Positions 45,756 to 45,867 of a DNA stretch of 64,000 nt are shown here, in pieces. Where the stretch lies: positions 113,809 to 177,808 of the IMG/VR virus record IMGVR_UViG_3300031555_003442; one strand, given 5' to 3'. Origin of the DNA: a virus. Lineage: Duplodnaviria > Caudoviricetes. A program made the translations under genes and the position numbers. Numbering within the stretch: position 1 is the stretch's first letter; each line of letters starts with the position of its first letter. The notes beneath the pieces were generated by a model. The model was not told the DNA's origin, ran no database searches, and worked only from the letters and a program-made list of their open reading frames with translations.

Positions 45756-45763
45756 AATCAAAA

Positions 45764-45867
45764 ATCCTATTCAGAAGGTCGAGTTCCGAATAGGATAGAG
45801 CAGCATTGCTGCCGTCAAAAATCTATTAATGTAAGGAATCTCGACCATTCCCTATCATAAGTTTATA
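45764..45867 (-). ncRNA. Late promoter plus two-hairpin kissing-loop leader of tnpB-1
   Basis: TATAAACT 45867-45860; loop GGUCGAG (45846-45840) complementary to loop CUCGACC (45783-45777). Confidence 0.7.

Follow-up and report, generated by a model that had tools for sequence, protein, structure and literature searches.

Selfish nucleases, such as TnpB and the homing endonucleases, need to be expressed without harm to the genome that carries them. How such expression is controlled is known mainly from the homing-endonuclease genes of T-even phages (PMC2988022). Structured leaders repress the translation of I-TevI, I-TevII, I-TevIII, segB and mobE of Aeh1, and in T4, a late promoter located inside the hairpin allows late transcripts to escape this repression (PMC2988022). 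The leader described here, which precedes nuclease genes of large rumen phages, resembles these elements in that a selfish phage nuclease gene with a promoter of its own is headed by a stable hairpin just before the AUG, which in one class of the leaders (class I, see below) buries the ribosome-binding site, and in that the nuclease would be kept weakly or conditionally expressed. It differs from them in the position of the promoter-like motif, which is upstream of the first hairpin (hairpin A) in all leaders, and in its composition: the T-even elements are single hairpins, whereas here a second hairpin (hairpin B) kisses the first one and the two loops covary.

Several other described RNAs share parts of this design. 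In the c4 RNA of P1 and P7 and the CI RNA of P4, an upstream structured element pairs with a complement further down the same leader and controls downstream expression, and the pairing sequences vary among relatives with matched changes, forming a specificity code. However, c4 and CI are released by processing and target ribosome-binding or termination regions in trans, whereas the partner in our leader is a hairpin loop; furthermore, they operate in the context of immunity rather than of nuclease genes, and the leader matched neither the C4 nor the c4-a1b1 model of Rfam at E-values up to 5. ColE1 RNA I/RNA II (with Rop) and R1 CopA/CopT are similar in having fully Watson-Crick-paired 7-nt loops that set the specificity and, as in ColE1, a protein such as Rop could read the shape of the leader rather than its sequence. 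These, however, are antisense pairs from opposite strands that interact in trans, whereas the leader carries both loops on one RNA and implies no antisense transcript. Two complementary loops on one phage RNA are also found in the phi29 pRNA, but there the geometry forces intermolecular pairing through 4-nt interactions, and the pRNA is a component of the packaging motor that is tied neither to the start of an ORF nor to nuclease genes. Finally, the omega RNA (reRNA) of TnpB and the end hairpins of IS200/IS605 elements are structured parts of the same kind of IS605-family element in which one of our leaders is found. Nevertheless, the omega RNA is encoded across the 3' end of tnpB and reaches up to the right end, and the end hairpins sit at the tips and are alike. 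The leader is a further, separate element and is also found outside IS elements.

A twin-hairpin leader upstream of a nuclease gene

The window analysed here is the final 64 kb of a 177,808-bp IMG/VR virus record (denoted G000), which is estimated to be 42% complete. A first-pass annotation, made from the sequence alone, had described at positions 45,756-45,867 of the window, on the minus strand, a promoter-like motif followed by two hairpins with complementary loops, a small hairpin between them and the start of a nuclease gene. Direct reading of the minus strand bore out this architecture (copy 1), including the exact reverse complementarity of loops A and B (Table 1). Hairpin A begins 6 nt past the promoter motif and is separated from the small hairpin by 19 nt with a U-run (45,820-45,817), whereas hairpin B is followed by UUUUGAUU, which contains a further U-run, and then by the AUG at 45,755-45,753. 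The hairpins were recovered by RNAfold (z = -2.96), and hairpin B, with the tail TTTTGATTAT, was scored as terminator-like in a consensus scan. Both the stem and the loop of hairpin A covary in the copy 1 orthologues L010 and L115-L117. A search of the phage nucleotide database with the region returned no match.

The same layout with other sequences had been proposed to precede the second tnpB gene of the window, and this was found to hold for copy 2 (54,625-54,505), in which the loops are complementary over 9 nt (GUGGAGUUC/GAACUCCAC) and the start codon is the AUG at 54,504. A third copy precedes a third tnpB gene, which is located outside the window.

Table 1. Positions of the leaders, their parts and the associated genes in the window; the third copy is given in the coordinates of the record.
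Feature	Position	Strand	Description and basis
Promoter-like motif TATAAACT, copy 1	45860..45867	-	TATAAAC itself at 45867-45861; sequence reading
Hairpin A, copy 1	45832..45854	-	8 bp including one G-U, 7-nt loop; sequence and RNAfold
Loop A, copy 1	45846-45840	-	GGUCGAG; sequence
Small spacer hairpin, copy 1	45800..45812	-	GCAGC-AAU-GCUGC; sequence and RNAfold
Hairpin B, copy 1	45764..45796	-	13 bp including one G-U, 7-nt loop; sequence and RNAfold
Loop B, copy 1	45783-45777	-	CUCGACC; sequence
AGGA, Shine-Dalgarno-like	45765..45768	-	9 nt ahead of the AUG; lies in the 3' arm at the foot of the hairpin-B stem and is paired there
Putative zinc-finger-less TnpB/Cas12f-like RuvC nuclease gene after copy 1	44460..45755	-	431 aa; P0001; precomputed family PF27229
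Copy 2 leader (class II)	54505..54625	-	Sequence and folding; covariation on alignments A1 and A5
TATAAAC, copy 2	54625-54619	-	Sequence
Hairpin A, copy 2	54609-54578	-	12-nt loop
Small hairpin, copy 2	54576-54564	-	Sequence
Hairpin B, copy 2	54561-54517	-	16 bp, 14-nt loop
Canonical TnpB gene after copy 2	53374..54504	-	376 aa; PF07282 and PF01385
IS605-family left end	54683..54719	-	TTAC and degenerate subterminal hairpin; comparison with relatives
Copy 3 leader, before the third tnpB	G000:C1 15629-15738		Outside the window; 9-nt complement ACUGGCAUU/AAUGCCAGU

Covariation of the kissing loops

Comparison with relatives confirmed that the copy 1 stretch encodes a genuine RNA leader of ~100 nt, conserved and folded, with mutually pairing hairpin loops. 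The relatives were gathered by protein similarity and by a TnpB-domain search of five related phage records, and further leaders were sought with a two-hairpin covariance model and a twin-hairpin scan of five whole records; leaders of the copy 1 type (class I, see below) were sought by script and pattern search rather than with the covariance model. Altogether, ~40 leaders were collected, three from this phage and the others from related large rumen phage contigs. Loop complementarity was retained in every one of them, with ~30 distinct loop sequences; it extended over 7-10 nt for cognate loops, compared to a median of 4 nt for non-cognate pairs.

The covariation was evident in both alignments of homologous leaders. 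In alignment A1, 95.2% of the cells were paired, compared to 66.8% in shuffles (0/500), and ~40% were paired when the partner was slid. In alignment A5 (20 rows), built on the hairpins without regard to the kiss, the kissing helix was 93.5% paired, with compensatory double changes at 7 of its 9 pairs. Moreover, a DNA pattern search that specified only the arms of hairpin B, and was blind to loop A, yielded 11 hits, all of which contained the complement of loop B in loop A. Clean compensation is seen between close orthologues, as in the loop sets GGUCGAG/CUCGACC, GAGCGAG/CUCGCUC and GGGCAAG/CUUGCCC, in GUGGAGUUC/GAACUCCAC versus GUGGUAUUC/GAAUACCAC, and in UUGGCCGUC/GACGGCCAA versus UUGCCCGUC/GACGGGCAA. 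Up to 5 of the 9 loop positions are changed between close orthologues whose proteins are 92-95% identical, with every change compensated. Within one genome, the loop sequences are all different, both among the 3 leaders of G000 and among the 8 leaders of the related phage G002.

G-U and U-G pairs recur in the stems (e.g., U-G in 11 of the 20 A5 rows at one position of hairpin B). Such pairs would become A-C mismatches on the other strand, and therefore, the structure belongs to the sense strand, as had been argued from the G-U pairs of copy 1. It had also been suggested that the loop pairing continues into the stems (UUCC/GGAA); this applies to copy 1 alone, as the continuation is 1-3 bp in the relatives.

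By chance, the twin-hairpin scan returns 1-2 hits per strand per 200 kb, and hits without an adjoining promoter element and ORF were dropped. An extra pair of hairpins in the window (16,359-16,471, plus strand), with a 7-nt AT-rich loop complement and without the promoter motif, falls within this chance rate and is probably not a leader.

Two classes of leaders

The leaders belong to two classes. In class I, the type of copy 1, the 7-nt loops are fully paired, the 29-35-nt spacer holds a small hairpin, and a run of 5-7 U follows hairpin B. In class II, the type of copy 2, a 12-nt loop A and a 13-14-nt loop B form a 9-bp kiss, hairpin B has 16-18 bp, and both the 12-17-nt spacer and the tail are U-rich. 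The small hairpin is in the same place in all class I leaders and varies in sequence (GGCAU-CUA-UGCC, AUGUAC-UUAG-GUACAU, GCACC-GCAA-GGUGU). In two class I leaders (L012 and G002:208303), a GCAA (GNRA) tetraloop closes this small hairpin and might dock onto one of the other helices of the leader. In all leaders, hairpin A starts 5-12 nt downstream of the promoter element and hairpin B is followed by a U-rich tail; the AUG is located 3-19 nt past hairpin B in most of them and ~27 nt past it in one.

Copy 1 had been described as lacking a Shine-Dalgarno (SD) sequence, which proved to be incorrect. AGGA is the most enriched SD-like tetramer in these phages, with a spacing of 6-11 nt, and the AGGA at 45,768-45,765 falls within this usual range. 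More generally, the 3' arm of hairpin B in class I closes with UAGGA, 7-12 nt ahead of the AUG, and this motif is kept in the class I leaders of at least four nuclease lineages. Because the AGGA has the spacing of an SD sequence but is part of the hairpin-B stem, a ribosome-binding site is present yet paired. Thus, at the level of sequence, sequestration of the ribosome-binding site as in the T-even leaders is found in copy 1 and class I but not in class II, the leaders of which have no recognisable SD. In two leaders, G002:208303 (AAGGAG) and L040 (GAGG), the SD is free and comes after hairpin B, and therefore, SD occlusion cannot be the universal mechanism. Judged by its sequence, hairpin B of copy 1 also has the layout of an intrinsic terminator, a G+C-containing hairpin that runs into a U-tract; the hairpin-B loop of class II (13-14 nt) falls outside the criteria of the terminator scan, and the tail is U-rich.

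Promoter elements

The motif TATAAACT occurs 34 times in the 178-kb record, and for ~24 of these copies the ATG of an ORF follows on the same strand at a distance of 29-57 nt (33-36 nt in most cases), a distribution suggesting that it behaves like a phage-specific promoter. Examples of TATAAACT(A) in the window are found at 4553, 9820, 24171, 28005, 34917 and 35793, and most of the genes behind the motif have an SD of the AAGGA or GAGG type. The distance between the motif and the ATG is ~35 nt for ordinary genes, compared to 100-140 nt for the leader-bearing genes, and the leader is always positioned between the promoter-like element and the ORF start. Neither TATAAAC nor TATATT was seen inside hairpin B, where the embedded promoter of the T-even kind would be located. 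The motif had been taken for a late promoter, but a PHROG search with seven genes behind TATAAACT gave no informative match that would bear out this timing. In G002, TATAAAC is rare and the leaders are preceded by TGTATATT or by sigma-70-like TTGACA-17-TATATT promoters; therefore, the leader module is not bound to one promoter type.

A perfect sigma-70-like promoter (TTGACA-17-TATATT) is also present in the window at 45,917-45,945 on the plus strand, directed away from the copy 1 nuclease gene. It falls in the conserved segment that precedes the cassette, and its -35 box varies in orthologous cassettes.

A proposed cis-acting throttle on nuclease expression

We lean, with modest confidence, towards the reading that the leader is a cis-acting 5' RNA of ~100 nt that belongs to the mobile nuclease cassette and throttles the expression of the nuclease. 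From its structure, covariation, position and strand, and from its association with selfish nuclease genes, we infer the following course of events. Transcription would begin a few nucleotides past the promoter motif, placing hairpin A at the 5' end of the RNA, and 7-9 Watson-Crick pairs between loops A and B would then hold the leader in a single compact structure, independent of the sequences around it. Hairpin B would be the effector. It is long and stable and is followed by a U-rich tract shortly before the AUG, and therefore resembles an intrinsic terminator; it may terminate transcription, block initiation, or do both. In class I, including copy 1, the base of hairpin B would, in addition, bury the AGGA ribosome-binding site. 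Most transcripts would thus stop at hairpin B or go untranslated, with a small fraction yielding the nuclease. Two features of class II speak against this reading: the hairpin-B loops of 13-14 nt are atypical of intrinsic terminators, and there is no SD to sequester.

The first-pass annotation had proposed a cis-acting switch, or a short stand-alone RNA, that restricts nuclease expression to late infection. A role in limiting expression is the most plausible reading of the data; a search across the leaders for a conserved antiterminator or anti-sequestor fold came up empty. Neither the proposed extension of the kissing pairing into the stem nor a pairing between an arm of hairpin A and the region before the AUG is conserved. 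The latter pairing, a 12-bp alternative involving the 5' arm of hairpin A, is present in copy 2 of the window and in L008 but not across the set; the same applies to pairings of 4-8 bp between spacer and tail in several class II leaders. With no conserved alternative fold found, no mechanism that would relieve the block is visible, which counts against the throttle.

The geometry of class II raises the question of which molecules kiss. A straight coaxial stack of hairpin A, kiss and hairpin B (~36 bp, ~100 Angstrom by our estimate) would barely be spanned by the 12-17-nt spacer, and therefore, an intramolecular kiss needs a sharp bend, or else the pairing occurs between two molecules. In the latter case, leaders would form homodimers via a private loop code and serve as gene-specific dose sensors, for which the distinct loops of each leader within a genome and the fully compensated loop changes between close orthologues also speak. 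Yet covariation is the same for pairing in cis and in trans, drift among old paralogues likewise predicts distinct codes, and the class I spacers (29-35 nt) are long enough for an intramolecular kiss, so that we regard dimerisation as decidedly unlikely. A broader proposal, that each nuclease cassette has a private loop code read either by homodimerisation or by a Rop-like shape-specific protein, providing a dose-dependent brake without cross-talk, is speculative and, in our judgement, fairly unlikely.

The leader may also be an element of processing or stability, with a net effect on expression that could even be positive. Here, the stack of hairpin A, kiss and hairpin B would be cut by a host enzyme of the RNase III type, freeing a translatable mRNA, or the 5' hairpin would protect the transcript from decay. 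Hairpin A starts 5-12 nt past the promoter element, and thus at or near the 5' end, and loop-loop helices are RNase III substrates in the complexes of Staphylococcus aureus RNAIII with its targets, both of which count in favour of such a role. However, no phage-encoded RNase III was found in the five records, and a plain 5' stabiliser has no need of a covarying kiss with a second hairpin; this role appears quite unlikely.

Downstream genes and the mobile cassette

The gene throttled by copy 1, if the preferred cis-acting reading is correct, encodes a putative RuvC nuclease of the TnpB/Cas12f kind. A local Pfam search with this protein gave no match. Its AF2 model (pLDDT 89.7) had Cas12f, TnpB and Fanzor as best Foldseek matches (E = 5e-10), and hhalign against a TnpB alignment (E = 1e-4) brought the RuvC I and II motifs into register. 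An alignment of 34 sequences shows no variation at D201 and E279, which belong to the motifs GID and IED, or at D345, and the zinc finger is absent. Hence, the products of the copy 1 and copy 2 genes, which had been taken for unrelated nucleases, are distant relatives that share the Cas12f/TnpB fold, as judged by hhalign and Foldseek. The PF27229-labelled family of the copy 1 nuclease comprises 975 clusters at 50% identity. Members of this zinc-finger-less family (P0001, P0121-P0270) turn up frequently on contigs as long as 473 kb.

Promoter, leader and ORF of copy 1 form a cassette, which extends from ~130 nt upstream of the promoter to ~25 nt beyond the stop codon and is found in differing flanks in different contigs; in L010 and L118, the segment upstream of the promoter has a deletion of ~60 nt. 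Since homology among the cassettes ends ~25 nt past the stop, any guide scaffold must be contained in the terminal part of the ORF.

At least 7 diverged lineages of TnpB-like genes carry the leader, which is not confined to them, contrary to its initial description as a feature of TnpB. The covariance model also matched leaders before an HNH-like NUMOD3 gene (PHROG homing endonuclease), before a gene for a C2H2 finger with DUF559 (Vsr-like endonuclease) and before two DUF7487 genes, one of them with a PHROG homing-endonuclease match. Therefore, the module marks selfish nuclease genes in general. Conversely, the leader as a general feature of TnpB elements was ruled out: it is absent from the cyanobacterial, chlamydial and Paludibacteraceae TnpB loci checked (~30% identity) and from eight TnpB genes examined in the same phages. 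In G002 (IMGVR_UViG_3300031998_000006), a complete relative of 215 kb with 13 TnpB-domain matches, the leader is present before seven of the TnpB genes and absent from six; the single Y1 transposase gene (tnpA) of this phage, at 32,426-32,785, adjoins a divergent tnpB. One further leader of G002, at 208,303-208,426 (L065:11303-11426), is class I-like, has the loops CUGGUAC/GUACCAG and is located behind TTGACA-17-TATATT. It precedes the free AAGGAG and a 160-aa ORF, which had only a sub-threshold match to Terminase_3.

Another possibility is that the leader is a stand-alone small RNA of ~95-105 nt, extending from the promoter to a terminator at hairpin B and acting in trans as a decoy or regulator, with the nuclease gene travelling along. 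The two hairpins tied through the kiss would then shield the ends of the RNA. The order of promoter, hairpin and U-tract is that of a small-RNA gene, hairpin B of copy 1 is terminator-like, and the leader forms the 5' edge of the mobile cassette. Nevertheless, five phage records (1.07 Mb) yielded no orphan leader lacking an ORF immediately behind it, the AUG is mostly within 3-19 nt, and the copies are wholly different in sequence, with no common trans target evident. Moreover, a search of the loci for the 9-nt loop sequences found none beyond the two loops, and those of copy 2 are absent from the rest of the 178-kb record; the loop-A sequence of copy 3 recurs twice, near chance expectation, and the copy 1 loops, at 7 nt, are too short to be informative. 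We therefore consider a trans-acting RNA unlikely and retain the cis-acting throttle as the preferred reading.

The IS605-family element around copy 2

Copy 2 is housed in a tnpB-only element of the IS605 family (53,357-54,719, minus strand). TnpB guide scaffolds and right ends usually lie around the tnpB stop codon. In the six copy-2-type loci compared, a conserved omega-RNA-like 3' segment spans the stop codon, and homology stops ~18 nt past the stop, after the hairpin CCCACGAC-TTTA-GTCGTGGG and GTATGTCAA. The left end in the relatives reads TTACGCTGAAC..CCCACGGC-TTCA-GCCGTGGG, a mirror of the right-end hairpin; in the copy of the window, the left-end hairpin is mismatched. Because this hairpin is separate and sits ~75 nt upstream of the copy 2 promoter motif, the leader is a third element within the IS. 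The right end of the element in the window is GTAAGTATG, unlike the relatives' consensus, and the element may no longer be mobile. The copy-2 TnpB, at 95% identity and together with the leader, is also present on two rumen MAG contigs labelled Fibrobacter sp. (L066) and Prevotella sp. (L067). These are probably phage contigs binned with bacteria; the host hints conflict.

Location within an IS could mean that the element works as DNA, as a single-stranded fold for IS200/IS605 transposition or for homing, or else as a part of the TnpB guide RNA, and hairpins of single-stranded DNA also tolerate G-T pairs. We find this highly improbable. The true left-end hairpin and the omega-RNA-like segment are located elsewhere in the element, the HNH, DUF559 and DUF7487 genes with the same leader have no IS ends or guide RNAs, and the bacterial TnpB loci examined have no leader; furthermore, the loop sequences are unlike the flanks, where a guide would be. 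Accordingly, two specific identities were ruled out: an omega RNA or reRNA, as the leader is 5' of the AUG and the omega-like segment is at the 3' end, and the IS200/IS605 left-end hairpin, as the leader has no resemblance to the right-end hairpin and is carried by non-IS genes too.

Relation to described RNA families

A scan of the window against Rfam 15, including the riboswitch and ribozyme models, gave no hits at the gathering thresholds, among them none to IS605-orfB-I/II, C4, c4-a1b1, HEARO or RAGATH-18, most of them families that had been named for such a check. When E-values up to 5 were admitted for six leader-holding loci, one weak, unrelated hit was obtained, outside the leader. Inspection of the leaders for conserved pocket-like nucleotides revealed none. 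A leader peptide was rejected as well: an AUG recurs near positions -45 to -60, but the length and frame of the ORF vary, the frame differing between the close orthologues L015/L018 and L020.

The searchable literature contained no paper that ties TnpB or homing endonucleases to kissing loops. Structured leaders on phage homing-endonuclease genes are already known. New relative to Rfam and the searchable literature are the twin-hairpin leader with a covarying kiss and a copy-specific loop code, and the use of one design in common by TnpB-like genes and several homing-endonuclease families. The leader matches no described RNA family and is, on these comparisons and with the strong support from covariation, a candidate for a new one.

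Implications

One RNA design is common to at least ten unrelated or distantly related lineages of nuclease genes of large rumen phages. The combination of this shared design with different loops in each copy suggests a control module that is portable and moves along with the mobile cassette, and the leaders offer a natural set of putatively orthogonal kissing-loop pairs. The finding bears on the natural regulation of compact Cas12f-related RNA-guided nucleases, including the large zinc-finger-less family. If the loops do form a private code, mobile genes would have an RNA control system of a new kind.
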